NCBI GenBank assembly: GCA_026066175.1
Contig: GCA_026066175.1_4721.2
DNA length: 64,000 bases
Source: a phage
Reading direction: 5' to 3' (one strand)
The translations under genes were made by a program, and so were the position numbers. Positions 4,219 through 44,150 of the stretch are shown here, piece after piece; the first letter of the stretch is position 1; each line of letters opens with the position of its first letter. Under the pieces are notes generated by a model. It ran no database searches, was not told the DNA's origin, and saw only the letters and a program-made list of their open reading frames with translations.

Positions 4219-4250
4219 CCCTCCTCCAACCCGGAAGGGAAGGAGGAGGG
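4219..4250. terminator. conserved palindromic hairpin CCCTCCTCC-AACCCGGAAGGGAA-GGAGGAGGG between convergent genes
   Basis: 9-bp GC stem, internal AA/AA, CCC/GGG, GGAA loop; an A10 run at 4199-4208 gives a U-tract for the minus-strand transcript. Confidence 0.6.
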
Positions 4251-11244: not shown

Positions 11245-12796
11245 AGCGTTTCACTCCTACGATGGTACCGACAAGGATTCTCGGTACGAATAAACTACGA
11301 TGTTTGAACCACGAAGCGGTTGTTGGGATACGTTTGATGGCTTCGATAAGCCCGATTAGCGTATAGCACCCCCGACTGTTCTTCTTAGGCCAGTACTTTT
11401 TATCTAGACCTAATACTGCAAACAGTTCATCCACCAGATTGGGATAACAACACAACGCTTCAAGTGTTTCAACCTGTAACTGACTTAAATCTAACAGTAT
11501 CGCTAGACGAACGTGGTAATCACTCCGTAGGTCTAATGGATCTTTCGCTTCAAGATCACCAACGTCGGTTAATGTCCACGCGTCTCTTGCGTAGCGGTAT
11601 TTACCCTTCCAAACCTCAAGGAAAAAAGGAGACCGGTAATGACATTTTGACCATTCTGGGTACTCACGGAACCACCGAACAAGATCGGGATGGAATTCAC
11701 CTTCTTCGGCTAACGAGTCCAACGTCACCAACAGGTTAGGTTGTTCAGGATCGATGGCAAGCAGCGCGGTGAAAAGCGTGCTTGATGGAAGTTCGGTTTC
11801 CACACTTGATGGCGGTAGCCATTCATCCAGATCAGGATACCGATACGCTTGAATCGATGCACCCTGCTCGGGCAAGAACGAATCACGAAGAATGTCCTGA
11901 TACTGCACCACCATACCACCACGACGCGCACGGGATTTATCACGCACCGAAAGGCTCGGTTTGTAAAGGTACTCTTCGGGGAGTATCTGTTGGTGTACTT
12001 GAACAGGATACCGCGCTACGATGTGTGTTGGCGTGTCGTATGTGTAACGGTAAGAGAAGGTTGCGTTGTACGAAGAACTGTTCTCATTCTTCTCGGGTTT
12101 CGGAGCGTCGGTGAAATCAAATTGACCAGAGATCTCTTCTTGCATTTCCCTGATAACCAATTTAACGCTCTTACCGTCACCTGCAACCGTCGTCATGGTG
12201 GTTGCGCGGTTGTCGAACCCGTCTCTAAGGTATTCGCTGAACTTATCCCCGTAACCCGCTATTGCTTCCCGGTGTGTATGAATAACTTTTAACAACATGA
12301 GAAACTGTGTTGGGATCGCATAGCTGTATTCGGCGCTAAGGAAGGCAGCGACGTGCTGACTTGTCAGCAAACGTTTCATGTCGTACCACCAACGTTCGGC
12401 GGTGACCTGATCCTCGAAACGTTTGGTGATTTGCATGGTCGCAACCATCGTACTGTAAACAGGCACTAACGACACACCAAGGTTACGGTCTTCAAATACT
12501 GGAAGACTGTTTCGTTTGTAAACGGTATCGTACATGGACGCCTGTTCTTCAGGGACAACGTTAAGCTCGATTTGGATAAACCCGTCAGCAGGCCCCTTTA
12601 CATCCTGATCAACAACTTGCGGTGGTTGCTCGTTCGCGGCGCTCATTTTAGCGTGAAGCGCTTCCCCTCGAAAAAGAATGTTCTCCCGACTATAATCCCA
12701 CCCGCAAAGCTCGCTGATCTGCCGTAACACCGCGATTGCAACCGGACGTGTTACCGTCGCGTATACGTCATTGATTTTTCGATCAAGTTTAGGCAT
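11231..12796 (-). CDS. hypothetical protein (about 521 aa)
   Basis: Listed start 12823 is GTG; in-frame ATG at 12796 has a GAGGA SD and sits 4 nt after the upstream stop. Confidence 0.8.
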   Translation of the reverse strand: MPKLDRKINDVYATVTRPVAIAVLRQISELCGWDYSRENILFRGEALHAKMSAANEQPPQVVDQDVKGPADGFIQIELNVVPEEQASMYDTVYKRNSLPVFEDRNLGVSLVPVYSTMVATMQITKRFEDQVTAERWWYDMKRLLTSQHVAAFLSAEYSYAIPTQFLMLLKVIHTHREAIAGYGDKFSEYLRDGFDNRATTMTTVAGDGKSVKLVIREMQEEISGQFDFTDAPKPEKNENSSSYNATFSYRYTYDTPTHIVARYPVQVHQQILPEEYLYKPSLSVRDKSRARRGGMVVQYQDILRDSFLPEQGASIQAYRYPDLDEWLPPSSVETELPSSTLFTALLAIDPEQPNLLVTLDSLAEEGEFHPDLVRWFREYPEWSKCHYRSPFFLEVWKGKYRYARDAWTLTDVGDLEAKDPLDLRSDYHVRLAILLDLSQLQVETLEALCCYPNLVDELFAVLGLDKKYWPKKNSRGCYTLIGLIEAIKRIPTTASWFKHRSLFVPRILVGTIVGVKRYGAR

Positions 12797-13172
12797 CGAT
12801 GTCGTCCTCGCTAATTTCCTCACCTCCTTGTTGTCGATATCCGGTATAATGAATCAGACTGCTCTGTAGAAGCTCTTTAACGAGCCCTAGACGCGTTTTA
12901 TCTGTTTCATTGGACGTTTCCATTAATGTTTCTATTTCGTTGTTTAAAACAGCGTATAGCGCTTCTAACGGCAATCCTTGGATGATTGGTTTGATGGTAC
13001 CTTCCGGTAGTGCCGCAACAGGAATCTGCACGACGGTTTCGTGTGCGGTATGTGGGTTAATACGGCAAATATACATACCGGGTACTGAATGTCGCGGGCA
13101 CGCCGCTACCAAGCATGTCTGTTGCTGCGCACCGTTAAGTGCGAGTGAAAGAAATTTTGCTTCACGTGTCAT
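12789..13172 (-). CDS. hypothetical protein (127 aa)
   Basis: ATG start. Confidence 0.6.
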   Translation of the reverse strand: MTREAKFLSLALNGAQQQTCLVAACPRHSVPGMYICRINPHTAHETVVQIPVAALPEGTIKPIIQGLPLEALYAVLNNEIETLMETSNETDKTRLGLVKELLQSSLIHYTGYRQQGGEEISEDDIDA

Positions 13173-13224
13173 CGCAGATTCCTGTTTGAAAGATAAGATA
13201 TCACATGATGGTCGACAGCATAAA

Positions 13225-13244
13225 GCCCACCCCGAAGGGCGGGC
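13225..13244 (-). terminator. hairpin GCCCACCC-CGAA-GGGCGGGC
   Basis: 8-bp GC stem with one mismatch and tetraloop, downstream of the 1127-aa gene stop; followed on the minus strand by TTTATGCTG. Confidence 0.5.
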
Positions 13245-13260
13245 TGTTTATGCGTACGGA

Positions 13261-16200
13261 TTACTTGTAGGCACCGCAATGGGCTTTGATGAGGAAAAGC
13301 ACCGCTTGCATCGGTTTATTGAACTGTTGCCATAACGTTAATGCCGGATGGAACAGCCAATCTTCCAGGCCGAGAACAATACCGTAGTTAACGACATTAT
13401 TAACATCGTTCTCAACGTTGAGTTCGCTATCCAGGAATTTATCGATTGAACGCAGGGTCTGCATGGCGTTGTCAGCAATAAGCCAAGCTTCATGCGCTTC
13501 ACGAGCCGCACGCAGCACTGCCTCCAGTTCGCTGATAGTAGCTACCGGTAATTCCTCACTGGTGAGGTCGTCAGAAACCGTAAACTGGCGATTGATACCG
13601 GTGTAGATCCACTGCATCAGTTTCGCTGCTTCCTCGTTCGGGTTGTTACGCGTTGTCGCATAGGTCGCGCTCATCTTCACGATATGCGTTTCACCAAGAT
13701 ACGCTTTGGACCCAACGCCTTTACGATCGCTGTCTTTCCACGGTTGTACGGTAGCGACCATGAGCTTATCCCATTTCTGAATAGGAATACGCTTCAGACC
13801 AACAACCGATCCGGCCGATGTTTCGGACTGGTTGCTCTTCCGCACTTCGCTGAGCTCGCGATCGATAGCAACGATTAATTCACGCGTCATGTTACCAAGC
13901 ATTTTGATTTCACCCAACGCAGCGATGAGCTTCTTCACATCGGTAATAGGTTCACCACCGATGGTAAGATGACGGATGAAACGTTTCAGAATAATCCGTT
14001 CTGCTGCTGGGTTACCACGACGCGCTTTAGCCAACGCTTGCTGTGTTTCGGCGAACAGCTTATCCCATGGAGCCGTAGCGGCGGTATAGTAACGGTGGTT
14101 GGTTTCAATCCAGTTACCGATACGGTTGACCGCACTCTTAACGGTATCCATGAACCCTTCCATCGCAATTTCGGTGGCTTCGACGTTACCCTGGAAGTTA
14201 TCAGGACCGATCTCACGCGCCGCCACCAGAATACCTTCCACCGCACTCACCGCATGCCGACCGATAGCCAGATTTCGCTGCGCTTCTTCAGCACGCTCAA
14301 CGAATTCTACAACCGCAGGATCGTCAACGATTTCCGCCTCAGCAACAACACGAGTACCAGCATCGCCTTCCAGTGTCTCGATGGTGACAACCGGATCGTT
14401 TTCACCAGCAACATCCTGGTACTCTTCCTGTTTGAGATCGCCGTTATCAGCCGCTGCGACAGCGGTGAGTATACGGACGGTAACATCACCGAGTTCTTTC
14501 GCAGCGAATCCGTAGACGGTACATGCTGTTGTCGCAAAGTTCATCAGTGTGCGCGTGCGTTTAACGATGTAACCAACATCGTAATCGTTGCCGCTCTTAT
14601 CGATGTCGCGGATTAACCGTTCAGCTGTCTCCTGAAGCTGTGTAGCTGCTTTCAGAAGGTCTTCGTTAAACAGTTTCGTTGACGCATCGATCAGCATATC
14701 AACACTAACGTTAGACGGTACGGCATCATCCTGCTGTTTCATGGCGCTAAGTTCGTCACGGAACTTACGAATACCGTCTAAAGCGGCGTCGGCGCTATGT
14801 CCGAACGCGGCCACGCCAGACATTGTTGTTGCTGTCAGCATGTCCGTATCAGCGTTTGGACTTTCGCCTTCTTTAAGATCCTTCAGCTGGTCGAAGAACT
14901 TACGGGATGCTTCAGCGATACGTTTGCTGTCTTTGACTGCGTTTACGATTTTATCAACCGATTTAGCATCGTTCGCAAGCAGCGTATCGAGTTTGTTCCA
15001 TTCGACGTTGACTTTCTTTTCATCCGAAGTATTACTCGGCGGAGGAAGCAGTTTCATCACCGGTGCTGTGCGTTGTTCTTTGGTCAGCTTGTTGGCCTTC
15101 CCTTCGATTTTTTTCTTATTAACACCAAAGAGATTTTTCAAACGCGCCACGAGGGCTTTTAAGAACTTCGCGACCGCTTCGTAAACCGATTTCAGAATCT
15201 GTTTAAAGCGACCCGGCTGCTTTTCCCCGTCTTCCAGATTAAGATCGCTGTTCAGCGCGACATCAAGCTGTTTGTACGATTCCATGATGTATTCGTCTTT
15301 GATTTCAGGACGAATCTCGAAGCTTTCCATCGGACCTTCAGCCGGACGGAATTCCATTTTCAGTTCGCCTTGCAGAGTAGGGTCGACAATGGCGATCGCT
15401 TCACCCTGACCATCAGCGTTAAAGCGTTCAGCGTAACGAGTACGGCGAACAATAACACTCTTATCCCCATCAAGACGACGTACCACCATGGTGCCAGGAA
15501 TGTATGGTTGTTCTGTTTCAATGACGGTTACATCTGCCTCACCTTCGCCGAGAATAACCGATGCACGCTGTTCAACAACAGGAACATCTAATACGCCACG
15601 TGCTTCCAGCTCTTGATGAATTTCGAACGACTCTTGTTTCAGATCTTCATCTTCTTCGTTTTCGTCTTCATCACCGTCACCTTTGGTGTCTTCATTACCC
15701 TCGGTGGTTTTGGTGTCGGTAGCATCAGCGTCGGCGTCTGTGTTGGTAGGTTCTTCGGACGCGGGTTCGGTGGTGCTATCCTCGGTGGACGTTTCGTCGG
15801 CGTTATCGACGTCAACATCACCTTGCAGCTCCGTTTCTTGAGCAACGGCGTCGGCTTTCTGCTCACCAGTATTGCCGTCATTAGCGTCGACAACAGGTTG
15901 TTCGTCAGCGACGGTATCTTCAACCTTTTCTACTTTCTCCACAACACGTTTAATCACGGTGACTTTGATGGGTTCTTCCGTCGTTTTGGTTTCTGGCGTC
16001 GCCTCGGCTACCTCAGCTGCTGTTTCAGCAACAGGTTCTGCTTTTTCCGGTTCGACGACATTGCCTTTAACACCTTCGGTGGTTTCTGCAGGTTGCGTCG
16101 CCTGTTCGATTTGTGCCGGATTGGTTGGATCGATGGCGTTAGCCGCATCCTGAATCTTGTTCTTCAGGTTGTCACGGTCAGCGTTAACGGTCGGATCATT

Positions 16201-16644
16201 GGTCACTTTCGGTGCCGGTGTTTCGGTCGGTGCGTTTGCTGGATATGGGTTCTTCGGCTCTTCACCAGGTGCGGTCGGTACGGCGATCAGCACGAACGGC
16301 TGCACGTCGTTACCGTCTTCCATGGTAACGCCACCGTTGCTCGGTGTGAAACGAATTCGTAAACTACCATCGATAGGACGGGTCACAATAACAGCACGTA
16401 CGACATCCTCGCCGTTCTCATCCGTGCTACGAATTACGCGAACGGCATCATCAACAGTAGCCCCTTCCTCGAGCGTATCTGATTCGATCGTCGCTTCGAT
16501 GCTGTCTGGCCGTGCCGCTGTAGGTAATGCGATCACCTGCTCTTCTTTATCAGTAGAAAGCGTTGCTTTGACTTCGATCGGTGTATCGCCGCTTTCCAGG
16601 TTAAGATGCGACTTACGCATCAAATCAGCTAACGATTTTTTCAT
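13261..16644 (-). CDS. large protein (1127 aa) with about 200-aa acidic low-complexity linker
   Basis: ATG start; central E/D/T/A-rich segment (product residues about 140-340); globular flanks. Confidence 0.85.
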   Translation of the reverse strand: MKKSLADLMRKSHLNLESGDTPIEVKATLSTDKEEQVIALPTAARPDSIEATIESDTLEEGATVDDAVRVIRSTDENGEDVVRAVIVTRPIDGSLRIRFTPSNGGVTMEDGNDVQPFVLIAVPTAPGEEPKNPYPANAPTETPAPKVTNDPTVNADRDNLKNKIQDAANAIDPTNPAQIEQATQPAETTEGVKGNVVEPEKAEPVAETAAEVAEATPETKTTEEPIKVTVIKRVVEKVEKVEDTVADEQPVVDANDGNTGEQKADAVAQETELQGDVDVDNADETSTEDSTTEPASEEPTNTDADADATDTKTTEGNEDTKGDGDEDENEEDEDLKQESFEIHQELEARGVLDVPVVEQRASVILGEGEADVTVIETEQPYIPGTMVVRRLDGDKSVIVRRTRYAERFNADGQGEAIAIVDPTLQGELKMEFRPAEGPMESFEIRPEIKDEYIMESYKQLDVALNSDLNLEDGEKQPGRFKQILKSVYEAVAKFLKALVARLKNLFGVNKKKIEGKANKLTKEQRTAPVMKLLPPPSNTSDEKKVNVEWNKLDTLLANDAKSVDKIVNAVKDSKRIAEASRKFFDQLKDLKEGESPNADTDMLTATTMSGVAAFGHSADAALDGIRKFRDELSAMKQQDDAVPSNVSVDMLIDASTKLFNEDLLKAATQLQETAERLIRDIDKSGNDYDVGYIVKRTRTLMNFATTACTVYGFAAKELGDVTVRILTAVAAADNGDLKQEEYQDVAGENDPVVTIETLEGDAGTRVVAEAEIVDDPAVVEFVERAEEAQRNLAIGRHAVSAVEGILVAAREIGPDNFQGNVEATEIAMEGFMDTVKSAVNRIGNWIETNHRYYTAATAPWDKLFAETQQALAKARRGNPAAERIILKRFIRHLTIGGEPITDVKKLIAALGEIKMLGNMTRELIVAIDRELSEVRKSNQSETSAGSVVGLKRIPIQKWDKLMVATVQPWKDSDRKGVGSKAYLGETHIVKMSATYATTRNNPNEEAAKLMQWIYTGINRQFTVSDDLTSEELPVATISELEAVLRAAREAHEAWLIADNAMQTLRSIDKFLDSELNVENDVNNVVNYGIVLGLEDWLFHPALTLWQQFNKPMQAVLFLIKAHCGAYK

Positions 16645-16659
16645 AAAACGTTGTTCCTC

Positions 16660-17763
16660 TTAAAAGTAATATTTCAGCGCCTCGCGAGAGACGTCAAGCA
16701 TAGCCGCCGTTGAGTTCGTGAAGAACTCGGCATAGCCCACAAGCGGCACCTTGATCCACGCGGTATACGCTGTAAGGTATCGAGAAAGGGCTACCATAGC
16801 ATCATCAGAAGCTGTAATGGATAACTGACCTTGTTGACGATACACATCGTTCAGTTTTGCTTGCAGGTTCCCTGCGATCTCAAGTAATTCGTTGGCGTAC
16901 TTTTTACGATGGTACGTAATAAGCAGATCAACACCGGTATTTACCGATTCGAGTAAAACGCCAATCTGCTCCAACGACGGCATGGTTACAACCATATCAC
17001 GCTCAACAGACACGACGTCCTGAACTTCAAATCGTGCTGATTGAATCGCGAGAGATTGTTGGATTGCTCCAGAACCCGTTGCGGTAACCTGATCAAGTCG
17101 TAGCATCCGGTTACCTAACAACGTCGTGTTAACCAGCCGCGATTCATTCAACGCACTGTACACCTTGTTCAACAGCGTGTGTGCATCACGATTAATCACA
17201 TCGATTAATGCGGTATCCGTCTGTTTTAAGATGATGTCAAGCGCTCTGTCTAACGTGTTTGCGAACTGTTTGAAGTCATCACGGAACGACGTTGACAACA
17301 GGTATTCTGCGATCTTCAGGTTTTGTTTGTATAACGTGTTTCCGGTGGTGAAGTCGAACCCGAAACTGTTTCCATAACGCAAATGTGGTGCGAGCGTGGG
17401 TGAGGCTTCAAAACTTTGCGCGATGGGTTTATGTCCAACCGCTTTCGTGTATTGACGACGGATATTACTCAGCTCGATTTGCAACGCACGACTGCGGTCG
17501 ATATACCGTGCGATGAAAGCAGTGATATTCCGCAACGTTGTCCAAATCGCATCGATGATCGCTTTGATGATTTTCATCGCAAGCTGGTTGTATGATTCCA
17601 GGGTAAGGAGATCAGCGCTTTCTGTAGCATAACCGGTTGCCAGAGCGCCGCCCGCTTGCTGATAAATAAGCTGATGGATTTGTCGTTGTGTTGCCGTCTC
17701 AGGTAGAGGTAAGGTTTTTAACAAGCTTAAGGCTTGGATTTGTCCATCATTGGTCTGCAGCAT
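16660..17763 (-). CDS. hypothetical protein, member of 5-gene paralog family (about 368 aa)
   Basis: Listed start 17826 is GTG; ATG at 17763 has a GAGGAA SD. Family-like helical segment with conserved Trp (AIIDAIWTTLRNI). Confidence 0.7.
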   Translation of the reverse strand: MLQTNDGQIQALSLLKTLPLPETATQRQIHQLIYQQAGGALATGYATESADLLTLESYNQLAMKIIKAIIDAIWTTLRNITAFIARYIDRSRALQIELSNIRRQYTKAVGHKPIAQSFEASPTLAPHLRYGNSFGFDFTTGNTLYKQNLKIAEYLLSTSFRDDFKQFANTLDRALDIILKQTDTALIDVINRDAHTLLNKVYSALNESRLVNTTLLGNRMLRLDQVTATGSGAIQQSLAIQSARFEVQDVVSVERDMVVTMPSLEQIGVLLESVNTGVDLLITYHRKKYANELLEIAGNLQAKLNDVYRQQGQLSITASDDAMVALSRYLTAYTAWIKVPLVGYAEFFTNSTAAMLDVSREALKYYF

Positions 17764-19048
17764 TGCGGGTTTCCTCAAGTTCGAGATGTGCATCAAGGTA
17801 ATCGTTAAGACCATCGATGACGTCACAGACCGTTAACAGGAATCGAGCAAAAGCAACGGCCTGGAAGCCAACGACATTACGAGCAATGCTAACACGTTGC
17901 ACAATGGCGGTTGAAGCCGCTTGGTCATCGTAGATCTGATGCAACAAACGTTCGTAGGGCTGAATCCATTCATCTTGATCAGCGAGGCTTGCCTCAAGAC
18001 AACGTTTAAATTCCAATTGACGTAGCGTTGACCATAAGGTGCTTAATGCGCCGATGATGGCGTTGGTTCCATCAAGAACATCGTTCAAGGGCAGGAAACG
18101 GAATCCGTCCTTCGCTGACTGGAAAGGAATGGCTTCCCATACAACGCTAAACTGTGCGCCAGTATAATCATCGACGTTCAGTACTTTTAACTGCGAAGCG
18201 CCAACCGGTGCGTTTATGATGACGTCATTGGTTTCAGTGTTCTCCAACGGCTTTTCACACAACGCGTCGTTGATCGCCTTAAGGATGTTTTCCCAACATG
18301 CCTCATTTTCAGCCGCGATGTTATCTTTGTTCTCCAACACCGGTGCTTTTAATAACCGCATCAGTAACGGATCAAGCTGACGATGCCATGCCGCCAGTAT
18401 CCCGGTATTTGTCATGATGTTTTCTGCGGTCTGTTGTAAATCCGCAACGCTGCTTACCGCACCGCCTCTTGGATGGAGATATCGCCAGTTATACGGGAAG
18501 TTCTCCCAGAAGGCATTATCTTCGTTAACCGTATATGCAGGAAGATTTTTCAGTTTTACGGCTTTCTTCAGCAACGGTTTTACTTGACGCACAAAACGAC
18601 GATAACTGCGGTTGCAAATATCAATGGCGTAGCGATACAACTCGTTCATGTAAAGCCATAACGCTCGGGTTGCCTCTTTCGCGGTTTTGTCAAAACTTTC
18701 CATGTTAAGACTCATCCCACCTGAGGTTTCCTCTTCCATCCCATCGATGATCTGATTGGGATCCATTCCCATCCCAGCCGCTGCGGTTGAAGCGATATGT
18801 TTGATGGTATTAATATCACGTTCTTCAACTTCGGTCATGTTAGGGACAATATCTAACCGGAGTTTGTTTAATGTTTGAAGGTGTTGTTCACCTTCCTTCA
18901 TGACGGTGTTCGTTTCATCGAGTGAGCGAAGCTGATTTTCGATATTACCGACATCGAGGATGTTGCCAGCGACACCGAATGATTCTACAGGTTCATCATC
19001 TATCCCTTGAAACAACGCGGTCATGGGTTGTTGCAACACGTTTTCCAT
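17747..19048 (-). CDS. hypothetical protein, paralog family (433 aa)
   Basis: IKHIASTAAAGMGMDPNQ and ATRALWLYM segments align with the 19202 and 20504 gene products. Confidence 0.8.
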   Translation of the reverse strand: MENVLQQPMTALFQGIDDEPVESFGVAGNILDVGNIENQLRSLDETNTVMKEGEQHLQTLNKLRLDIVPNMTEVEERDINTIKHIASTAAAGMGMDPNQIIDGMEEETSGGMSLNMESFDKTAKEATRALWLYMNELYRYAIDICNRSYRRFVRQVKPLLKKAVKLKNLPAYTVNEDNAFWENFPYNWRYLHPRGGAVSSVADLQQTAENIMTNTGILAAWHRQLDPLLMRLLKAPVLENKDNIAAENEACWENILKAINDALCEKPLENTETNDVIINAPVGASQLKVLNVDDYTGAQFSVVWEAIPFQSAKDGFRFLPLNDVLDGTNAIIGALSTLWSTLRQLEFKRCLEASLADQDEWIQPYERLLHQIYDDQAASTAIVQRVSIARNVVGFQAVAFARFLLTVCDVIDGLNDYLDAHLELEETRNAADQ

Positions 19049-19105
19049 TTAGGACTCCTACGTAGGAAAGATCATGGTGGGTGATCATGTCCACCATTGT
19101 GCGCG

Positions 19106-19128
19106 GTATGGAGCGTGGCTCCATACCC
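19106..19128 (-). promoter_or_regulatory. perfect 10-bp hairpin GGTATGGAGC-GTG-GCTCCATACC in the 5-prime leader of the 17747-19048 gene
   Basis: Lies between the conserved palindromic hairpin and the start codon. Confidence 0.35.
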
Positions 19129-19162
19129 AAGTCAAAAGATAACCGGATATTAACGGCATATA

Positions 19163-19194
19163 CCCTCCTCCTTCCCTTCCGGGTTGGAGGAGGG
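19163..19194 (-). terminator. conserved palindromic hairpin (inverted orientation)
   Basis: CCCTCCTCCTTCCCTTCCGGGTTGGAGGAGGG, between the 19202 stop and the 19048 start. Confidence 0.55.
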
Positions 19195-19201
19195 ATTTAG
19201 C

Positions 19202-20494
19202 TTATTTTGCTTTCTCGGTTACCGCGTTGAAGTATTTCGCTGCAGCAAATACCGCCTCCGCATACTGACGGACAGAGGCACGGAGGATCTTGGTTCCTAA
19301 TACCGAGCTTAAACGAGCCATTTCTGTTACAGCCGCGATATAAGGACGTACGGTTTCACGATCGGCCTCAGGTAACTTGTCGAGCATTTCGCCCCACTTC
19401 GTTTTGATTTTCATTCCGTTGAGTTTAGCATCTCGTCCTACAGTGCTTGCCAAACTTTCAACTTTATGCAAATATGTCGGCTCCACCCTATGGAATGCCT
19501 TCAGATATGCCGTCAATGCGCTTTTCAGCTCATTCCCATCGTGGAAAATATTCACATTTTCGATATTATCTGTTACGGTGTCAACAACTTCGATATGAAC
19601 ATCCTTCACCAAAGCACATGCTTTAATGACATCTTTCTCTTTTTCTAACGCATCCAGCCCTTTAACGACATATTGTTTTCCGCCGCTTTCTGGAAGTCTG
19701 AACGCTCTCAGCGCAGCTTTAGTGGTCTGAAGATACTTATCTAGAACACTATCGAGCGTTGTTAAATCAGTTAGGACATTGATGTCGTAGTTGATGTCAC
19801 CGATCATAGTAAATAGGAAATCTGACGTCGCCGCACTTGCAGCTAATTGTTCGATATGTTTGCTAACGGATGTTGCATTAACCGATTTTGCGTTCGGGAA
19901 CATATTAACCATATTCCCGGTAGGCTTCTCTAGCTGCTTGATCTGACGTTCCCCTTTATTGACTTCGGATGCGATTTTGGTGATCTCAGCATAAGCCAGA
20001 ACGAGATTCTTGAAAAGCGTCTGGAGCAACTTAAACAATTGTTCAGCAATATTCGCGATGGTGACCCAGACCGCATACAGTGCTTGCGCTGCACGTTCCT
20101 TGAAGCCTTCCAGCACGATAGCTTGGCCTTCGACTAACTTATCATTAGCCTGGAACATGTCTTCATCAGACATACCCAGGTTAGCTGCCGATGTTGATGC
20201 GATTTGGCGGATAAGCGCAACGTCGCTGGCGCGGGCTTCTGTGATCGTTGATGCGATTACGTAGGCGGTATCTTCCAACGTTGCTGATGTCCGTACAGCG
20301 ATTTCAGCCAGTTCGCTGTTCTCGTCGATGCTGTCGTCGGTATGTCGAATCACCAACTCAACTTCATCTTCCTCAATTTCTGCGTTGGGGTCTTGTTGCT
20401 CGGGTGAAATCGATGCAAGAACATCTTCAGCGCTGAGTAGTGCGAGTTCAAAAGCGTTTTTATTGATGTTATCAAAAAGAGAAATACGGGCCAT
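19202..20494 (-). CDS. hypothetical protein, paralog family (430 aa)
   Basis: SDVALIRQIASTSAANLGM and VEGQAIVLEGFKERAAQALYAVW align with the 20504 gene product. Confidence 0.8.
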   Translation of the reverse strand: MARISLFDNINKNAFELALLSAEDVLASISPEQQDPNAEIEEDEVELVIRHTDDSIDENSELAEIAVRTSATLEDTAYVIASTITEARASDVALIRQIASTSAANLGMSDEDMFQANDKLVEGQAIVLEGFKERAAQALYAVWVTIANIAEQLFKLLQTLFKNLVLAYAEITKIASEVNKGERQIKQLEKPTGNMVNMFPNAKSVNATSVSKHIEQLAASAATSDFLFTMIGDINYDINVLTDLTTLDSVLDKYLQTTKAALRAFRLPESGGKQYVVKGLDALEKEKDVIKACALVKDVHIEVVDTVTDNIENVNIFHDGNELKSALTAYLKAFHRVEPTYLHKVESLASTVGRDAKLNGMKIKTKWGEMLDKLPEADRETVRPYIAAVTEMARLSSVLGTKILRASVRQYAEAVFAAAKYFNAVTEKAK

Positions 20495-20503
20495 GTGGGT
20501 TCC

Positions 20504-21823
20504 TTAACCTTTAGTATAGGCTTTAACGAGGGTGTTAATAAAAGAAGTTAATGCACGAAGGTACTGATAAGCGAATTGGTTTTCAATACGTTGCTCTTTA
20601 CTGCAGAGCATGATCGCCCGTTTCACCAGTTTGGGATATATTTCAACGTACGGTTTATAACTGTCGTCGTATTGCTGCGTATCGAATTTTTTCATGGCTT
20701 CATACTGCAGCTTTTCCATCTGACGAACACGAGCACGATCGAAGATCTTGGAGAACGCACGTCCGCGTTGGGTGATCGCAATCAGATCTTTCGCTAACGA
20801 AAGCGGTTTAACGCTACGGAAATCATCCGGTGTGGGTAGCGTGTAGTTTTCTGGATCGCTATCCCATTCGGTCGCTGCGTCTTCAACCACGACATCCAAT
20901 TTCAGATAATTTTCAATCGCGGCAAGAACGTTGTCTTTTGCCGCATTGAATTCTTTTAAGAACACAGCAGCATTAACATAACGAATACGTTTACCAGAAA
21001 CCGCCGGTGTAACCACATCACTCCCGTCAACGGAACCTCTGTTCTCCAATGCGGTTTTCAGTGTATCCAGAAACGACATGTAGTCCACAGGAAGTTGGTC
21101 AACACGATCTAAACGAAAATCGAATGTCTTCACACCAAGACCGGTGGTAAGGTCGTAACGTGCACCGCCTGCCATGATTCGGTTATAGTTCTCAAGGTTC
21201 TTCTTGATTTCGTCAACACCACCGACATGATTGCGATTGGAAAAGAGGATACGCCAACCGGCTTTGAACGGCACGGTAACCGTTTCTTCTTTACCTTTCG
21301 GAAGTTTTTCTAACGCTTTGATCGCATTCTGGAAATTGCGGGTTTCATCATAGATGATCCGCGTTAATCCTTCCAGGACAGCAGCCAGTTGCAGAACAAT
21401 ATCAACAATGATATCCCAGATCTTTTTCAACGCTCGAACGACGGTGTCTTTGAACCCTTCAACAACCAACGCTTCACCCACGGTGATGTTGTCAGTAGGA
21501 CGAAGCATTGCATCGGAAGGCAGACCTAAAGCGATTGAGGCGGATTCTTGAACGTTACGTACCAATGCAACGTCGCTGTAGTTAGCCGTCTCAATCGTTG
21601 GTGCAACATCAAAACTGATTTCTCGTAATGCTTCAACAGCAGGGAAAGCACGATCGAGCGCCTCTTCATGTTCATCGATGTTCGCTAAACGGAGTTCAAC
21701 CCCATCAGCGTCAATGACTTCGGTGGTAGGCTCTGCTGCAAGCGCCTCGGCAACGATGGGATCCTTCTCAAAAGCTTCAAGGCTAATATCGCCTTGTGTA
21801 GCAAATAGTGGTATACGTACCAT
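20504..21823 (-). CDS. hypothetical protein, paralog family (about 439 aa)
   Basis: Listed start 21847 is TTG; ATG at 21823 has a GGAGAC SD. Motifs SDVALVRNVQESASIALGL, VGEALVVEGFKDTVVRALKKIW. Confidence 0.8.
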   Translation of the reverse strand: MVRIPLFATQGDISLEAFEKDPIVAEALAAEPTTEVIDADGVELRLANIDEHEEALDRAFPAVEALREISFDVAPTIETANYSDVALVRNVQESASIALGLPSDAMLRPTDNITVGEALVVEGFKDTVVRALKKIWDIIVDIVLQLAAVLEGLTRIIYDETRNFQNAIKALEKLPKGKEETVTVPFKAGWRILFSNRNHVGGVDEIKKNLENYNRIMAGGARYDLTTGLGVKTFDFRLDRVDQLPVDYMSFLDTLKTALENRGSVDGSDVVTPAVSGKRIRYVNAAVFLKEFNAAKDNVLAAIENYLKLDVVVEDAATEWDSDPENYTLPTPDDFRSVKPLSLAKDLIAITQRGRAFSKIFDRARVRQMEKLQYEAMKKFDTQQYDDSYKPYVEIYPKLVKRAIMLCSKEQRIENQFAYQYLRALTSFINTLVKAYTKG

Positions 21824-21871
21824 GTGATGTCTCCAGTAATAATTCAAAAGATAAATCAGCGCAGCATAAGA

Positions 21872-21903
21872 CCCTCTCCCAACCCGGAAGGGAAGGGAGA
21901 GGG
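21872..21903 (-). terminator. conserved palindromic hairpin, variant CCCTCTCCC...GGGAGAGGG
   Basis: Between the 21926 stop and the 21823 start; preceded by GCATAAG as at 7913. Confidence 0.55.
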
Positions 21904-21925
21904 AATATGTCAGTTTACTAACTGA

Positions 21926-23257
21926 TTATTTCTGTGCTGCGTCAGCCGGTTTTTCAGCCGCCTGGCCGCTGTACTCTTTCAGCATTTTAGCAACGCCGTC
22001 CAGTACTGCGTTACCCGCCTGAACACCGTACTTCATCAGGCTAACCTGCGGGTTGATGTAGCAAGAACGTGCGTCTTTCAGTGCAGACAGCACAGTTTTA
22101 ACACGCTGTTTCTCTTGAGCAGAAACTTCGCCTTTCTTAGCCAGTTCAGCTTCCATATCGTCGCCGAATTTAACAGCGTCTTTGAAGCCCTGGGATTTCT
22201 TACCGATGTTACCTTTCGCAGCCAGCAGTTTATCGGCCAGCGCTTCAACGCTGTTGATCACCGCAGCCATCTGGTTCGGGGACAGTACATCGGCTTCCTG
22301 TTCCATCACGGTGATTGCGTTATTGCCGCGTTCCCAGGTCACTTTACCGTCGGTGGTTTTGAATCCCCAACCGTTCGGACCTTTCACATCAGCGATCGCA
22401 GGCGCGTTCAGTTTGTCGGTGTACTCAGTATGTGATTTAGACTTAACGAGTTCAACGAATTTATCCGCACGATCGTCAGCCGCCTTCATTGCTTTCTCGA
22501 AGGTATCTGCGATTTTGCTTGATGCACCAGCGATATCGATATCGCCAATATAACCGGTAACAGTGGTGCCCAGTTTAACTTTCGCGTTCTTCGGAGAGCC
22601 TTTACGTTTGGCGATCATTTCTTTCAGTTTAGCCGCACGTGCTTTCAGTTTGGTTGCACCGTCGAAGATACGATCGATGAACTTCACGAAGTTGTCCCAG
22701 GTGGATTTCAGGAAGTTCTTAATTGCAGTCCACAGTTTCTGCCACCATTTCTGTTCTTCCAGGAAGATCATGTTGGTTGCATCATAACGGGAAGCGGAAC
22801 CGCCGAAGCTTTCGAAGGAAGGCATGGTTTCCGGCAGTTTGAAGCCGATAGTACCACACAGACGTTTCAGATTACGCATGTGTTCTTGCGCGGTCTGTGC
22901 AGACATACCACCGTCTTTCAGATAGCTTTCGGTCGCAACAACGGTTTCCGTCATTTCGTCCATGGCTTCGTCCATGGCTTCAGCGGTTTCGTCGTCTTTT
23001 GCGATTTCGATAACAACAGCATCAACCTGCTCGATGTCACCACGGACTTCGATAGCCAGTTCGGTTTCAGCAGCGGTGTCTTCAGCGATTTCAGCACGTT
23101 CGGTCAGTTCAGCCACAACGGTTTCATCGCCTGCAGCAGCATCGGCTGCCGGTTCTGCTTCAACGGTTGCCGCAGCTTCCGGATCGATCTCAGCAGCCAG
23201 TTGAACCAGCTGTGCGTTAGATGGATTTGCGACAAGACGATCAAAAATAGAAGGCAT
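21926..23257 (-). CDS. hypothetical protein, distant member of the same paralog family (443 aa); probably abundant
   Basis: Strong optimal-codon bias; acidic N-terminal region; WQKLWTAIKNFL helix comparable to family members. Confidence 0.85.
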   Translation of the reverse strand: MPSIFDRLVANPSNAQLVQLAAEIDPEAAATVEAEPAADAAAGDETVVAELTERAEIAEDTAAETELAIEVRGDIEQVDAVVIEIAKDDETAEAMDEAMDEMTETVVATESYLKDGGMSAQTAQEHMRNLKRLCGTIGFKLPETMPSFESFGGSASRYDATNMIFLEEQKWWQKLWTAIKNFLKSTWDNFVKFIDRIFDGATKLKARAAKLKEMIAKRKGSPKNAKVKLGTTVTGYIGDIDIAGASSKIADTFEKAMKAADDRADKFVELVKSKSHTEYTDKLNAPAIADVKGPNGWGFKTTDGKVTWERGNNAITVMEQEADVLSPNQMAAVINSVEALADKLLAAKGNIGKKSQGFKDAVKFGDDMEAELAKKGEVSAQEKQRVKTVLSALKDARSCYINPQVSLMKYGVQAGNAVLDGVAKMLKEYSGQAAEKPADAAQK

Positions 23258-23300
23258 AATTTTGTTTCCTTTACAATAAATTGCACATTAGCTAATGCGG

Positions 23301-23326
23301 CTTAAGCAAGGCTAAAGCTTGCTTAA
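23301..23326 (-). terminator. hairpin CTTAAGCAAG-GCTAAAG-CTTGCTTAA
   Basis: 10-bp stem overlapping the stop of the 23323 gene. Confidence 0.35.
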
Positions 23327-23853
23327 AAGCCCTTAAAACCCGGTGCCATAGGTTGCCCAAACACCGCATTTAAAGTACATATGATGTCCTGGATGCCATT
23401 GTCCCAATGGAGCCAAGTACGCACCATCTCTTCGTCTGACAACGTGATATAACTCATAAGTTTACCGCTGCTTTCCAGACGTTGGTGTGAACTTAACGAC
23501 TGACGATCTGACCAGTTATCGATCAGCTGTCCTGCAATCTGAACGTTCGTGTCCCGTCGACCCGTGTGAATGAACCGTAATGTATCACGGATAAACTCCA
23601 GGCTCGCGAAGTTCAGGTTGGGGTTATGGCTGTTCATTTCCACCCAATCGGTGATGGGGTACATCAAACGATAAAGGGTAGAAAGTACCTGACGTTCATA
23701 TTTCCAGTCATCCAGAGGAGTACCATCGACCAGACGCTGATACAAACTTACCACGTCACGGTCGTAGTTCTCCTGCCGCTTTACACCGTTAACCGGGAAA
23801 CCAAAGAACCCAGTACCGTATAAAGTTAAAGGTACGTCACGGAGTGCACTCAT
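23323..23853 (-). CDS. hypothetical protein (176 aa)
   Basis: ATG start, ATGA overlap with the upstream gene. Confidence 0.7.
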   Translation of the reverse strand: MSALRDVPLTLYGTGFFGFPVNGVKRQENYDRDVVSLYQRLVDGTPLDDWKYERQVLSTLYRLMYPITDWVEMNSHNPNLNFASLEFIRDTLRFIHTGRRDTNVQIAGQLIDNWSDRQSLSSHQRLESSGKLMSYITLSDEEMVRTWLHWDNGIQDIICTLNAVFGQPMAPGFKGF

Positions 23854-24749
23854 ACAGCCGCCTCTTCTTTTCGTTTGATGTTGTAACGAAGTGTCTTCAG
23901 ACGGTCTTCATGATATTCGATCTGTTGTTGGATCTTCGGATCGTTACCCGCGTTCTGTTGCTGTTGCTTCAACGAAAGAATCCAGTATTCCAGCGCTTGC
24001 GCTTCTTCTTTAGCCACCTGTAATGCGGCTTCTTCTTTCTCGCTACGATAGATGCGGAAACGATAAATCCATGAGTTGGTCATCTGTGGGTTCCACATCC
24101 CCAGACGCATCGGGTCGGTATTACCTGCGTTGTATAATCCGTTACCCACACCGTCTTCATCAGAAACGATGACGTCAGGGATTTTATCCAGACCGGCAAG
24201 GATCTGTTGTTTCTGCCCACACAACACTTCGGTAGCGGTGGCGAAACCGTACATATTCGCTGTCAGGTAAGCGATGTCGTTTTTGGTGAAGAATTCACCA
24301 AGGGCTTTATCCCCACCAGGCATACTTTCACAGATGATTGTTGCGCGTAGCAGTGTACGAGCATAGCCGACGTAGAAACTCAAAGATTCAACAAGACGTA
24401 CCAACGCGGCTTCTTTGAAGCTCAACCCGTCAGCGGCAACATCGATCTCCAGGTTTTTATTCACACGTTTAACGATTTCTGGAATCAGATCAACCGCGTT
24501 ACGTAACGCGAGATGAACGTTTTCAACCCAGCTGCCAGAACGCACACGTGTTAAACGTTGATGGAGGTCTTTATCCGCCAGTTTCCATAAGGCGCTTTCC
24601 CCTTTCTGAAGAAGGGGTGCGGATGTTTCGTAGTAAGGGATGGCGGTGTTGCTGATTTCGTCGCGAATCGACTCCAGTGCGTCAGCAACGCCGTTGCGTT
24701 TAAACAGCGGTTTTAAACCGCGAATGAATTCTTTAAAATCGATCGCCAT
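23850..24749 (-). CDS. hypothetical protein (299 aa)
   Basis: ATG start. Confidence 0.75.
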   Translation of the reverse strand: MAIDFKEFIRGLKPLFKRNGVADALESIRDEISNTAIPYYETSAPLLQKGESALWKLADKDLHQRLTRVRSGSWVENVHLALRNAVDLIPEIVKRVNKNLEIDVAADGLSFKEAALVRLVESLSFYVGYARTLLRATIICESMPGGDKALGEFFTKNDIAYLTANMYGFATATEVLCGQKQQILAGLDKIPDVIVSDEDGVGNGLYNAGNTDPMRLGMWNPQMTNSWIYRFRIYRSEKEEAALQVAKEEAQALEYWILSLKQQQQNAGNDPKIQQQIEYHEDRLKTLRYNIKRKEEAAV

Positions 24750-24787
24750 GGATAAGCACCTATGCTATTTCAAAACGGTTTTGTATA

Positions 24788-25894
24788 TCAACGGATCTGT
24801 GGGATGTTTCCGGTGCGTAAAGCCTGAAGAATCGCCAACAAATCGGAACCTGAGGTTGAAGAACTGTTGGCTTTCTCCAGCTGTTTGAAGCTGACGGTGG
24901 TTCCCTGATCCATGCTGTGGAAATAGAAGGTCGCCATCTCTTCTGCTTCATCGATGATGATCAGCTGCATCGCAAGGGCTTCAGCCATGACTTTCTGACG
25001 CACGCTGTAATCCGATAAACGACGTCCGATCTTACGCTCGATGGCTTCTTGGTTAGCCTTAGAGATGATATAGGTGGAGGCGATGGCTCCAGAAGAAGGG
25101 ATCTTTGTGCTGGCTGCGGCTTTTGCTGCGTTGATACGCGCCGCGTTAACCGCTTTGCGAATACCTTCTTTATCCATACGCGAAATGCGTTTATGCTCAC
25201 GAACCAGATCACTCAACAGAATGATGTCACTCCAGAAGGACAGTTCACCCGCCATCATGCGATGCCAGCGTGCACGCCAGGTGTTCTGTGGGCCACCAAT
25301 CGCGAGAATAGAGGCGAGCACTTCTGCTGGGGAGCTTGCGATACGCATGCTGATGTTCAACGGCATTTTCATCGTGGCCTGACCATCGGTCAACGTAACC
25401 GTCAGGAACTTCCCGGTCACCGCGTTCGCATCTTTGTTCAGCATTTCAATGGCGGCATCGCTAGCACCGACATCAAGGCTATTTTTCTGTTTTCCTTGTA
25501 AGTTAAAGCCTTTCTCATCAAGGAAGACAAGACTTTTGCTATCCGCGCTTTCGAATGCGATTTTTGCGGCTTTACCGAACAGATCGGCGTTACGATTTGG
25601 GTTAACACGACCCAGGGTTTTATCCACGCTGATGTTACCGACCTGCATGATGGTATTCAACGCCAACAGATAAAAACCGGTATACATGTTTTCGGCGGTA
25701 CGCATGCAGTTGCCTAACGCATTGCGTGCGTCGCTGTAGTACAGTTCACGTTCGAAAATAAGCGGAGCAATGACACGTGACGGTTGCGAGAGTTCAACCA
25801 GCGAACCCGGCTGGATAAGTTTATTGACTTCGTAGACTTTAGCGATACCGGACGCAACAACGTTAACGGCGTCGGCAATTTCTGATGCTACCAT
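24788..25894 (-). CDS. hypothetical protein (368 aa)
   Basis: ATG start; first gene of the long minus block. Confidence 0.8.
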   Translation of the reverse strand: MVASEIADAVNVVASGIAKVYEVNKLIQPGSLVELSQPSRVIAPLIFERELYYSDARNALGNCMRTAENMYTGFYLLALNTIMQVGNISVDKTLGRVNPNRNADLFGKAAKIAFESADSKSLVFLDEKGFNLQGKQKNSLDVGASDAAIEMLNKDANAVTGKFLTVTLTDGQATMKMPLNISMRIASSPAEVLASILAIGGPQNTWRARWHRMMAGELSFWSDIILLSDLVREHKRISRMDKEGIRKAVNAARINAAKAAASTKIPSSGAIASTYIISKANQEAIERKIGRRLSDYSVRQKVMAEALAMQLIIIDEAEEMATFYFHSMDQGTTVSFKQLEKANSSSTSGSDLLAILQALRTGNIPQIR

Positions 25895-25929
25895 ATTGAA
25901 ATCCTTAGTTACAAATAAAGGAAAGAAGA

Positions 25930-27138
25930 ATGTCTAATTACTACGACCAAGCTATTCAAACCATTCAGGAGAATAATGCGTCGTTAACACCCGAAGCGGT
26001 GGAGGCGGCGGGCAACACAGCGTTATTCACTGATTCGGATTGGGCAATAGCGCGGAAGAATATTCGTACCAGTGTCGGTCAGGGGACATACGAGGACAGT
26101 ATCGCCAGACGGTATCGAAATGTCTCCCCGATTCCAGGGAACAGCCCGATTCCGATCAACCGCGATCATGCCGGTATCACCTTCTTTACACGACCCAATT
26201 TAAATCTTACCGACGCGAATTTAAAACGCGATCGTCGCTTATGGTCGTTACGTACGGATAACCCCAATAGTATCCAGGCGGTTGTCCGTGACTATTTAGA
26301 CCCTGTAGGAGCCAGAAAGCGTAACCATCGAGGACGTGCCATCGTCGACGAGCGCAATCCATTCATAAGTATACTGACGGATAACCTGACGGATATCAGT
26401 GGTTTTAACGACATGGAGATGCAGGTTTATCAAGGTAAACCCGGATTACGGCAAGAAACCGTGGTGATGGCCGACGGTTCGGTGGATATGTTTCAGCCTT
26501 ATAATCTTAACGCGACGTTCAAGAACATCATGGGTAACCCCATCATGTTCCTTCATTATATTTGGCTGATTTACATTGCAGGCGTGCATAACGGTGAATT
26601 GTCGCCAAGCCCGCAGGCCATCATCGATAACGAGATGGATTATTGGACACGGTGCTATCGCATCATTCTCGATCCTACTGGCATGTATGTTCGTTACATC
26701 TTTGCACCAACAGCGATGTTCCCTGTGGGGCTACCGATTGGTAACATGGCCAACTACAGCATTGATAAGCCATTCACGCAGGATAACGAACGTATCACCA
26801 TTCCGTATCAAGCGGTGGGGAACAACGCGTTCGATGAAATCCTGAAGGACGAATTCAACCGTTTGGTGTTGATGTTCTATTACGGTGATAATGATACCCG
26901 TACGTTCCTTGAGGACGAAGAGGTCGTCCCGATTTCACCCTACGAACGTCGGATTATGTCCTATCGTGTCGATATGTATCCCTTCATCCATCCATTAACC
27001 TCGGAGCTGCTCTGGTTTGTTCCGGCTGATGACTATAATGAATTCTATCTGGATCTTGAACCATCTGCATTACCGCCGGATACGTTCAGTCGCGATCTTG
27101 TCCGTACCACTATTCCGCAAAGTTACGAGGGAGAATAA
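25930..27138 (+). CDS. hypothetical protein (402 aa)
   Basis: ATG with AAGGA SD; stop overlaps the next start (TAAATG). Confidence 0.8.
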   Translation: MSNYYDQAIQTIQENNASLTPEAVEAAGNTALFTDSDWAIARKNIRTSVGQGTYEDSIARRYRNVSPIPGNSPIPINRDHAGITFFTRPNLNLTDANLKRDRRLWSLRTDNPNSIQAVVRDYLDPVGARKRNHRGRAIVDERNPFISILTDNLTDISGFNDMEMQVYQGKPGLRQETVVMADGSVDMFQPYNLNATFKNIMGNPIMFLHYIWLIYIAGVHNGELSPSPQAIIDNEMDYWTRCYRIILDPTGMYVRYIFAPTAMFPVGLPIGNMANYSIDKPFTQDNERITIPYQAVGNNAFDEILKDEFNRLVLMFYYGDNDTRTFLEDEEVVPISPYERRIMSYRVDMYPFIHPLTSELLWFVPADDYNEFYLDLEPSALPPDTFSRDLVRTTIPQSYEGE

Positions 27139-30152: not shown

Positions 30153-30184
30153 CCCTCCTCCAACCCGTAAGGGAAGGAGGAGGG
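30153..30184. terminator. conserved palindromic hairpin with GTAA loop between convergent genes
   Basis: CCCTCCTCCAACCCGTAAGGGAAGGAGGAGGG; flanked by ACATAA and AATATGCTGTTAT exactly as at 54842-54873. Confidence 0.6.
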
Positions 30185-42634: not shown

Positions 42635-42687
42635 TTTTTTTTACTCCTGATTTATGTGTCGATTGATTGACGTATTAATTTATGTTT

Positions 42688-42706
42688 GAAGGTGCTGTTC
42701 ACCTTC
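42688..42706 (-). terminator. hairpin GAAGGTG-CTGTT-CACCTTC
   Basis: Directly after the stop of the 42708 gene; near-identical 24-mer also at 18872-18895. Confidence 0.4.
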
Positions 42707-42707
42707 G

Positions 42708-43139: not shown

Positions 43140-43153
43140 CGTTGATGCTCCTT

Positions 43154-43663: not shown

Positions 43664-43667
43664 CTCT

Positions 43668-44120: not shown

Positions 44121-44150
44121 TGTTTCTTTTCCTGTTATAGTCGGTATACA

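Follow-up and report, generated by a model that had tools for sequence, protein, structure and literature searches.

The phage contig GCA_026066175.1_4721.2 (NCBI GenBank assembly GCA_026066175.1) was analysed as a window of 64,000 nucleotides, which is the whole stretch. It carries five consecutive minus-strand genes between positions 16660 and 23257, here named A to E, followed by a 1127-aa gene, Z; the genes upstream of E are named F, G and H. The original prediction, made from the sequence alone, described A–E as tandem paralogs, probably encoding abundant virion or internal proteins. The five minus-strand open reading frames (ORFs) that it delineated are present, and their starts match those of the annotated orthologs gp54–gp58 of Escherichia phage Goslar. 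As set out below, these genes and Z very probably encode internal head proteins of the phiKZ type. The genes are as follows.

13261-16644, minus strand: gene Z, 1127 aa, ortholog of Goslar gp53; very acidic N-terminal part of ~830 aa and probable C-terminal PF12699 domain
13261-14157, minus strand: probable PF12699 domain of Z, residues 830-1127
16660-17763, minus strand: gene A, 367 aa, ortholog of Goslar gp54; short member whose N-terminal part has 56 aa, matching phiKZ gp96 in position
17747-19048, minus strand: gene B, 433 aa, ortholog of Goslar gp55; weakest member by sequence
19202-20494, minus strand: gene C, 430 aa, ortholog of Goslar gp56, which is of low copy number; probable PF12699 paralog
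20504-21823, minus strand: gene D, 439 aa, ortholog of Goslar gp57, which is of low copy number; probable PF12699 paralog
21926-23257, minus strand: gene E, 443 aa, ortholog of Goslar gp58; dominant PF12699 protein, very probably an internal head or ejection protein
23323-25894, minus strand: anchor genes F, G and H, upstream of E; gp91-type, gp90 position and gp89-type, respectively

Transcription runs in the order E, D, C, B, A and then Z. B and A overlap by 17 nt, and the spacing is 9 nt between D and C and 15 nt between A and Z. Wider gaps lie between E and D (102 nt) and between C and B (153 nt).

The 6.6-kb region aligns with positions 58510-65091 of Goslar at 80% DNA identity, where the Goslar GenBank record annotates gp54–gp58 as five 'hypothetical proteins'. 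Comparison by tblastn with 48 Goslar proteins showed that the whole window is collinear with Goslar, from the major capsid protein gp41 to gp91. The six array proteins retain the gene order and orientation of gp53–gp58, with 71-97% amino acid identity (E 86.5%, D about 71-72%, C 74%, Z 96.6%). The source is a distinct Goslar-like jumbo phage. The array has already been described in this close relative, and represents another allele set of a known family and no new kind of element.

Family membership

Pfam family PF12699 (phiKZ_IP, 'phiKZ-like phage internal head proteins') has a gathering threshold of 27 bits. E passes it with 69.9 bits (E-value 3.2e-19), as does Goslar gp58 with 82.4 bits. 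D (26.7 bits) and A (20.0 bits, E-value 4.4e-4, residues 56-358) fall below the threshold and align in the correct register, and residues 781-1127 of Z, scanned alone, also score under it (25.6 bits, E-value 8.6e-6). The E-values of these three range from 4e-6 to 4e-4. In a PHROG scan, E matched phrog_5750, 'internal head protein', and no family was found for A, B, C, D or Z. The window genes gave no Pfam or PHROG match to T4-type internal proteins (IPI-III); the only matches were to phiKZ-type families.

The claimed paralogy is statistically supported beyond chance, with direct pairwise similarity confined to B, C and D. BLASTP gave E-values of 5.5e-19 for C-D (27.5% over 280 aa), 1.3e-6 for B-C and 7e-7 for B-D, the corresponding hhalign P values were 2.4e-13, 1.6e-6 and 1.2e-5, and phmmer joined B to C and D at about 1e-8. 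Comparison of A or E with B, C, D and Z remained at chance level by hhalign (P 0.13-0.5), without a BLASTP match; A and E are connected to the family through PF12699 and through an external profile, built without any Goslar-type sequence. When 181 window ORFs were ranked with this profile, E came first (6.6e-19), A second (7.8e-13), C third (2.3e-4), D fifth (0.028), behind one antisense ORF, and B seventh (0.7), and only spurious ORFs interleaved between the family genes. By hhalign, the P values against the external family were 1.3e-16 (E), 6e-9 (A), 1.8e-5 (D), 6.5e-4 (C) and 1.5e-3 (B). The C-terminus of Z matched the same family with P=1.4e-6 and 90% probability, and the unrelated neighbouring gp98 family, used as a negative control, gave P=0.23.

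A transitive phmmer network joined all of the members. E matched the first array member of phages PhiEaH1, PCH45 and SPLA10 (9e-11 to 2e-7), and C and D matched the second (1e-5 to 2e-6), including matches of C to SPLA10 gp32 (1.8e-6) and to a PhiEaH1 array member (1e-5). A matched Moabite gp116 (9.5e-6), and its ortholog Goslar gp54 matched PhiPA3 gp101, the ortholog of phiKZ gp96 (1e-4). The bridges run from E through PhiEaH1 gp229 and gp227 to C, and from gp227 through Moabite gp116 to A. By these sequence comparisons, all five genes very probably belong to one family, joined through outside sequences. B and C are its weakest members, tied to it through D and through published AlphaFold 3 (AF3) models of their Goslar orthologs.

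Two sequence elements had been proposed as common to the five proteins. The (S/T)DVAL(I/V)R block is strict in C and D, looser in B, and absent from A and E, while a counterpart of the (V/I)EG...W element can be aligned in each of the five genes, and in Z as well. The 1127-aa product of Z had been regarded as a separate acidic neighbour. It is acidic (net charge -80 over residues 1-829), but it is very probably the sixth member of the family, with the PF12699 domain in its last ~300 aa.

An AlphaFold 2 (AF2) model of E, computed from a 24-sequence alignment, was of moderate quality (predicted local distance difference test score, pLDDT, 66.8; predicted template modelling score, pTM, 0.64). Residues 1-58 are disordered in the model, and are followed by long helices with small beta elements, forming a helical bundle. 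A Foldseek search of BFVD viral models returned 107 matches at E<=1e-3, in which all of the named proteins are jumbo-phage internal head or virion structural proteins. As modelled, E shares the helix-rich PF12699 fold.

Genomic position and published orthologs

F (23323-23853), directly upstream of E, matches PF25618 (PhiKZ_gp91) with 158 bits, and is a vertex-binding protein of the phiKZ gp91 type. G matches phrog_3187 (gp90 position), and H matches phrog_3239 (gp89 position). The array occupies the slot after the gp89/gp90/gp91 homologs, which is the slot of phiKZ gp92-gp96 and of SPN3US gp53/gp54. The same block is present in seven other chimalliviruses (phiKZ, PhiPA3, PhiEaH1, PCH45, Moabite, SPLA10 and SPN3US), and consists of gp87 and gp88 homologs on one strand, gp89-gp90-gp91 on the other, and then 2-7 PF12699 paralogs. 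In phiKZ, gp92-gp96 have 440, 435, 505, 547 and 371 aa, and are followed by gp97 with 816 aa. The window repeats this pattern of five mid-sized members, the last of them the shortest, and then one long member.

The Goslar orthologs have been characterized in a recent preprint (bioRxiv 10.64898/2026.04.21.720040). Goslar gp53 and gp58 carry PF12699, gp54-gp57 share its fold by AF3, and the synteny of gp53-gp58 with phiKZ gp92-gp97 was noted. All six proteins were found in purified virions by LC-MS/MS (liquid chromatography-tandem mass spectrometry), at ~330 (gp53), ~70 (gp54), ~50 (gp55), ~60 (gp56), ~50 (gp57) and ~2150 (gp58) copies per virion, and gp58 enters the host by injection (bioRxiv 10.64898/2026.04.21.720040). 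The PF12699 paralogs of phiKZ are proteolysed during packaging, and gp93, gp95 and gp97 are expelled along with the DNA, entering the early infection vesicle. The likeness to the head-internal (inner-body or ejection) protein families of jumbo phages, which the original prediction had drawn from gene organisation, is borne out by the PF12699 match of E, by the slot shared with phiKZ and SPN3US, and by the presence of the Goslar orthologs in virions.

Predicted maturation sites

In an alignment of 34 family sequences, one column is Glu in 32 of the 34. Next come G, S, D or E, then a hydrophobic residue and a long amphipathic helix. In SPN3US, maturation sites have been mapped by mass spectrometry at gp53 AQE125↓GWKETLKDLF and gp54 ARE137↓SLWDDIK (PMC10052503; the arrow marks the cut), and these two glutamates share the Glu column with the window proteins. 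For phiKZ, the cleavage positions used are those quoted in PMC11297242 and PMC5694885. The sites predicted from this column, given as the residue preceding the cut (P1), together with a second conserved site in E, are as follows.

14158-14160, minus strand: predicted P1 Glu829 of Z, AME↓GFMDT
17596-17598, minus strand: predicted P1 Glu56 of A, TLE↓SYNQL; mature protein 311 aa; kept in Goslar gp54
18698-18700, minus strand: predicted P1 Glu117 of B, NME↓SFDKT; mature protein 316 aa
20108-20110, minus strand: predicted P1 Glu129 of C, VLE↓GFKER; mature protein 301 aa
21458-21460, minus strand: predicted P1 Glu122 of D, VVE↓GFKDT; mature protein 317 aa; kept in Goslar gp57
22757-22759, minus strand: predicted P1 Glu167 of E, FLE↓EQKWW; mature protein 276 aa
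22811-22813, minus strand: second conserved site, Glu149 of E, SFE↓SFGG; in the column of SPN3US gp54 AQE-124

The second conserved column (E↓S/N-F/Y) lies ~15-25 residues upstream of the main one. Further E↓S[FY] motifs are present in Z at Glu338, Glu440 and Glu455. The motif E[GS][FYW] occurs 11 times in the six proteins (3238 aa), compared with 1.56 +/- 1.23 after shuffling, and none of 2000 shuffles reached 11; its frequency in the other window proteins is 0.96 per 1000 aa (Poisson p=4e-4). The sites are also conserved: E117 and F119 of B are invariant across 21 B/C/D-type sequences and in 31 B-type homologs, the stretch 'AIVLEGFKERA' does not vary among 32 C-type homologs, whose overall identity is 69-100%, and both motifs of E (Glu149 and Glu167) are invariant in 49 Goslar-like homologs. 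The prohead-protease motif, for which a search had been suggested, occurs more often than expected and lines up with the sites mapped in SPN3US; cleavage at it is predicted.

The precursor N-terminal parts have net charges of -16 to -27 in B-E, -80 in Z (residues 1-829) and -3 in A (56 aa), while the mature parts are neutral to basic, from -10 (B) to +12 (E). An acidic N-terminal region had been ascribed to all five proteins; this is clear for B-E and weak for A. The maturation site probably divides the acidic N-terminal part from a helical domain of ~280-320 aa (predicted mature sizes of about 276-317 aa for all six proteins), and the '(V/I)EG...W helix' of the original prediction is most likely, judging from the alignment, the protease site together with the first helix of the mature protein.

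Two further regions carry similar motifs. The middle of Z (residues ~456-829, window 14160-15280) may hold a second, degenerate PF12699-like module. It contains IME455↓SYKQ and NLE↓DG, followed by an amphipathic helix, GRFKQILKSVYEAVAKFLKALVARLKNLF, that resembles the family's post-cleavage helix; its comparison with the family profile gave hhalign P=2e-5 over 43 columns only, and there was no Pfam match. The ortholog of gp41, a major capsid protein fragment at 1-1773 (minus strand) that runs off the start of the window, is 98% identical to the Goslar protein and has the motifs SME38↓S and GCE150↓S in its N-terminal region. In the Goslar cryo-electron microscopy (cryo-EM) structure, density is missing for the first 157 residues of the capsid protein, and residue 158 is the first seen. 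GCE150↓S, just ahead of this residue, is a plausible maturation site of the capsid protein.

Codon usage and transcription signals

Codon bias was measured as the frequency of optimal codons (Fop), with the standard E. coli set as the optimal codons, and as the effective number of codons (Nc). E has an Fop of 0.787 and an Nc of 32.7, second to the major capsid protein fragment (0.812 and 30.8), in agreement with the strong codon optimisation claimed for it. The other 46 genes have Fop <= 0.65, with A-D at 0.48-0.55. The bias of E fits the ~2150 copies of its ortholog gp58, and the low bias of A-D fits the 50-70 copies of theirs. High abundance, which had been proposed as probable for all five proteins, is found for the ortholog of E and not for those of A-D.

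Three hairpins punctuate or follow the array.

21872-21903: hairpin between E and D, 32 nt, GC-rich, RNA fold -25.9 kcal/mol; followed on the coding strand by TTATGCTG
19163-19194: hairpin between C and B, the same 32-nt hairpin; followed by TATATGCCGTTA
13225-13244, minus strand: hairpin after Z, a different GC hairpin, GCCCGCCCTTCGGGGTGGGC; followed by TTTATGCTG

The 32-nt hairpin is near-palindromic, with the pattern CCCTCCTCC-AA-CCC-GGAA-GGG-AA-GGAGGAGGG and a folding energy of about -25 kcal/mol. There are five exact matches and two variants in the window, all intergenic, whereas none is expected from shuffles. The exact pattern, CCCTCCTCCAACCCGGAAGGGAAGGAGGAGGG, lies at 4219-4250, 19163-19194, 21872-21903, 30153-30184 and 54842-54873, and the variants lie at 48171-48202 and 59975-60006. 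Within a few bases after most hairpin copies, including those after E, C and Z, there is a motif like TATGCTGTTA, which with at most one mismatch has 16 matches compared with 3.2 expected. This motif resembles the phiKZ late 'TATG' promoter. The E-D hairpin is kept in Goslar between gp58 and gp57, where it is unannotated in GenBank, and Goslar has annotated terminators at the place equivalent to the C-B hairpin and after gp53.

Hairpin and motif together are a probable terminator plus restart or promoter signal, which would be usable on either strand. The hairpins would split the array into three units, the first ending with F and E, the second consisting of D and C, and the third of B, A and Z, and may in this way set expression differences among the array genes. 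Scans of the window for sigma-70 promoters (10 compared with 15.6 expected) and for classical terminators (11 compared with 15.2 expected) showed no enrichment, as expected of a phage with its own RNA polymerases.

Divergence among Goslar-like phages

Divergence from Goslar was compared over window positions 9928-27138. The synonymous divergence (dS) lies at 0.2-0.4 in gp50, gp51, Z, F and E; G, H and gp62 have values of 0.8-1.0, and A-D of 1.05-2.07. The ratio of nonsynonymous to synonymous divergence (dN/dS) is 0.04-0.2 throughout, and dS is saturated for C and D. Positive selection was considered as the cause of the C and D divergence, and was rejected on the basis of these dN/dS values and the saturated dS. 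Because dS is mosaic while dN/dS is low throughout, the pattern suggests mosaic ancestry or recombinational replacement of segments by alleles from a more distant relative. Among Goslar-like phages, C and D exist in at least two allelic forms that have diverged deeply, and the C-type proteins in public data are bimodal, with identities of ~97-100% and ~72-76%.

Divergence is also uneven within the proteins. The N-terminal parts of B-E are 88-98% identical to those of Goslar at the amino acid level, compared with 65-84% for the mature parts; in E, the values are 97.6% for the N-terminal part and 80.6% for the mature domain. By analogy with phiKZ, the better-kept N-terminal parts would fit contact with a conserved shell.

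A tblastn search of 50,697 phage records with E and C returned Goslar alone, plus one weak match to a Pseudomonas phage, and we therefore consider these proteins too diverged for comparison at the BLAST level. A word-indexed homolog search with A found two near-identical proteins only, and alignment-based homolog searches returned mostly Goslar-like sequences.

Elsewhere in the window, the most diverged block besides C and D is 42152-49474 (orthologs of Goslar gp70-gp77), which consists of small genes with 65-82% protein identity. The gp69 ortholog at 40235-41320, a NUMOD1/HNH homing-endonuclease-like gene, has 70% identity to Goslar. Assemblies that carry the labels E. coli O157, Shigella sonnei, Salmonella enterica or Enterobacter hormaechei contain Goslar-like contigs of 208-249 kb, many of them near-identical and 237-249 kb long, and an 89-kb contig labelled E. 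coli O157 encodes a protein 100% identical to B. The sequencing of bacterial isolates therefore often brings along complete genomes of the Goslar-like clade.

Discussion

A-E and Z are very probably phiKZ-type internal head proteins, a class that enters the capsid along with the DNA and is then delivered into the host by injection. In the mechanism that we propose, each protein would be made late as a precursor, whose acidic N-terminal part would direct it into the prohead and may stay on the inner capsid wall, by analogy with phiKZ gp93 and gp162; we infer the targeting or wall-binding role of these parts. The prohead protease would cut after the conserved glutamate (x-x-E↓G/S-F/Y), freeing a neutral-to-basic, mostly alpha-helical C-terminal domain of ~280-320 aa that opens with a strongly amphipathic helix. 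The freed domains would fill the capsid interior together with the DNA, be ejected with it, and stay with it in the early infection vesicle. E would be the bulk component, as suggested by its capsid-protein-like codon bias and the hairpin directly after it, and D, C, B and A would be minor, faster-diverging variants.

Several observations weigh against this reading. B and C gave no PF12699 match at E<=1, either full-length or trimmed, and connect only weakly to the wider family (hhalign P about 1e-3); the AF2 model of B, with a shallow alignment, was too poor to use (pLDDT 43.5). Cleavage at the proposed sites in Goslar-type phages is a prediction from the aligned SPN3US sites. At the main site, the residue two positions before P1 (P3) reads T, N, V, V and F from A to E. 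Only Z (A-M-E) and the upstream site of E (S-F-E) match the S/A/G-X-E rule of phiKZ or the A-X-E rule of SPN3US, with P3 other than S, A or G in four of the six proteins; the true cleavage positions may therefore differ. In Goslar itself, cryo-EM shows no inner body, and no N-terminal fragment of gp53-gp58 was modelled on the capsid wall (bioRxiv 10.64898/2026.04.21.720040). The term 'inner body' in the original prediction accordingly stands as a family label only, since no ordered inner body is seen in these images.

It is possible, with a clearly lower probability, that these proteins serve mainly as structural components and act only within the capsid. In that case, the N-terminal parts would cement or scaffold the T=27 shell in the manner of phiKZ gp93 and gp162, and the helical domains would be core or scaffold, or space-filling, DNA-organising material, with ejection incidental. 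In the phiKZ capsid structure, N-terminal parts of gp93 (residues 14-84) and gp162 (residues 19-134) are ordered on the shell's inner surface, bridging hexamers, and the helix-rich domains are cut off. A T4 gp22-type scaffold has not been identified in these phages, the greater conservation of the N-terminal parts of B-E fits contact with a capsid protein that is itself 98% conserved, and there is unassigned helical-bundle density near the vertex complex in Goslar cryo-EM. However, Goslar gp58 and phiKZ gp93, gp95 and gp97 enter the host by injection and remain associated with the DNA or the phage nucleus, no fragment of gp53-gp58 has been modelled in the Goslar capsid, and ~2150 copies of gp58 exceed the need of regular wall sites. 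The two roles are compatible, and the choice between them is partly a matter of emphasis.

A second alternative, which we consider unlikely, is that the released helical domains are membrane-active, like alpha-pore-forming toxins of the ClyA family or type III secretion tip proteins, and refold at the inner membrane, contributing to the construction or lining of the early infection vesicle or of a DNA conduit. The mature domains open with a strongly amphipathic helix (hydrophobic moment 0.59-0.76), and E is modelled as a long bundle of helices that includes small beta elements. A search of the PDB with this model gave nothing specific and weak matches only, which include ClyA, AhlB, SmhB, HblL1, NheA, IpaD, BipD and the lipid-droplet protein TIP47; none of the matches to solved ClyA-family toxins or type III secretion tip proteins was significant, and the structural searches give no more than a faint hint of membrane-active bundles. 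After injection, phiKZ gp93 is recovered together with host membrane proteins and shows co-localisation with a membrane dye. On the other hand, E has no segment of transmembrane strength (maximum 19-residue hydropathy 0.96), with D and B borderline at 1.7-1.8, and phiKZ knock-outs of gp93 and gp97 are viable, while a gp95 deletion was not obtained. An extension of the same idea, in which mature PF12699 domains are conformationally switchable membrane-active bundles that assemble or line the early vesicle, with the alleles of the low-copy C and D exchanged under selection from the host's membrane composition or from defences that sense ejected proteins, such as Juk, is a long shot.

That the five genes are not all homologous, with A and E resembling B-D through helical, charged composition in a mixed set of head genes, is very improbable: the chance-level profile comparisons and the empty BLASTP results for A and E would allow it, but the two align in register with one and the same Pfam family and with a common external profile, PhiEaH1 gp229 and gp227 and Moabite gp116 connect E, C and A, the unrelated neighbouring family reached only P=0.23, and a shared fold is reported for all six Goslar orthologs (bioRxiv 10.64898/2026.04.21.720040).

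As internal head proteins, the products of A-E and Z can be set beside several known systems. Goslar gp53-gp58 are direct orthologs, and the dominant gp58 matches E as the bulk member; proteolytic processing, transcription signals and divergence, which lay outside the scope of the Goslar preprint, are treated here. The 'inner body' proteins of phiKZ, gp92-gp97 (with gp162/gp163), likewise comprise five paralogs of ~370-550 aa and then gp97 (816 aa), the counterpart of Z (1127 aa). They are processed by the prohead protease, packaged and ejected, and have a conserved S-x-E↓D/E-[LI]-K site in the alignment. They differ in that their sequence identity to the window proteins is only about 12-20%, that several members are present at 100-200 copies where the Goslar type has one dominant member, that a visible inner body has been reported in phiKZ and none is seen in Goslar, and that P3 at the conserved site is S in phiKZ and variable in the window proteins.

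SPN3US gp53 and gp54 (paralog family A, the major ejection proteins) occupy the slot after gp50-gp51-gp52 and are of very high abundance. Their propeptides have 125 and 137 aa, their cleavage sites align exactly with the predicted window sites, and their mature N-termini, GWKETLKDLF and SLWDDIK, are comparable to GFKERAAQAL, GFKDTVVRAL and SFDKTAKEAT in the window. SPN3US differs in having two paralogs only and a strict A-X-E motif, and belongs to another genus (Seoulvirus). In T4, IPI-IPIII and Alt similarly have an N-terminal targeting peptide that is cut off after Glu by the prohead protease, and the basic mature protein is packaged and injected. The T4 targeting peptides have 10-20 aa, compared with ~55-170 aa in A-E and 830 in Z; the T4 internal proteins are small, IPI has an anti-restriction role, and there is no sequence or fold relationship to the window proteins. 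The resemblance to the T4 internal proteins is functional only.

In nucleus-forming jumbo phages, no non-shell cargo is more abundant than the PF12699 proteins, whose role has been called "a key unsolved mystery" (bioRxiv 10.64898/2026.04.21.720040). The present analysis provides exact predicted maturation sites for all six proteins, and a two-part reading of the precursors, in which the acidic N-terminal part is conserved and the helical cargo domain diverges fast. The hairpin-punctuated operon could explain the 40-fold copy-number gap between gp58 and its neighbours.

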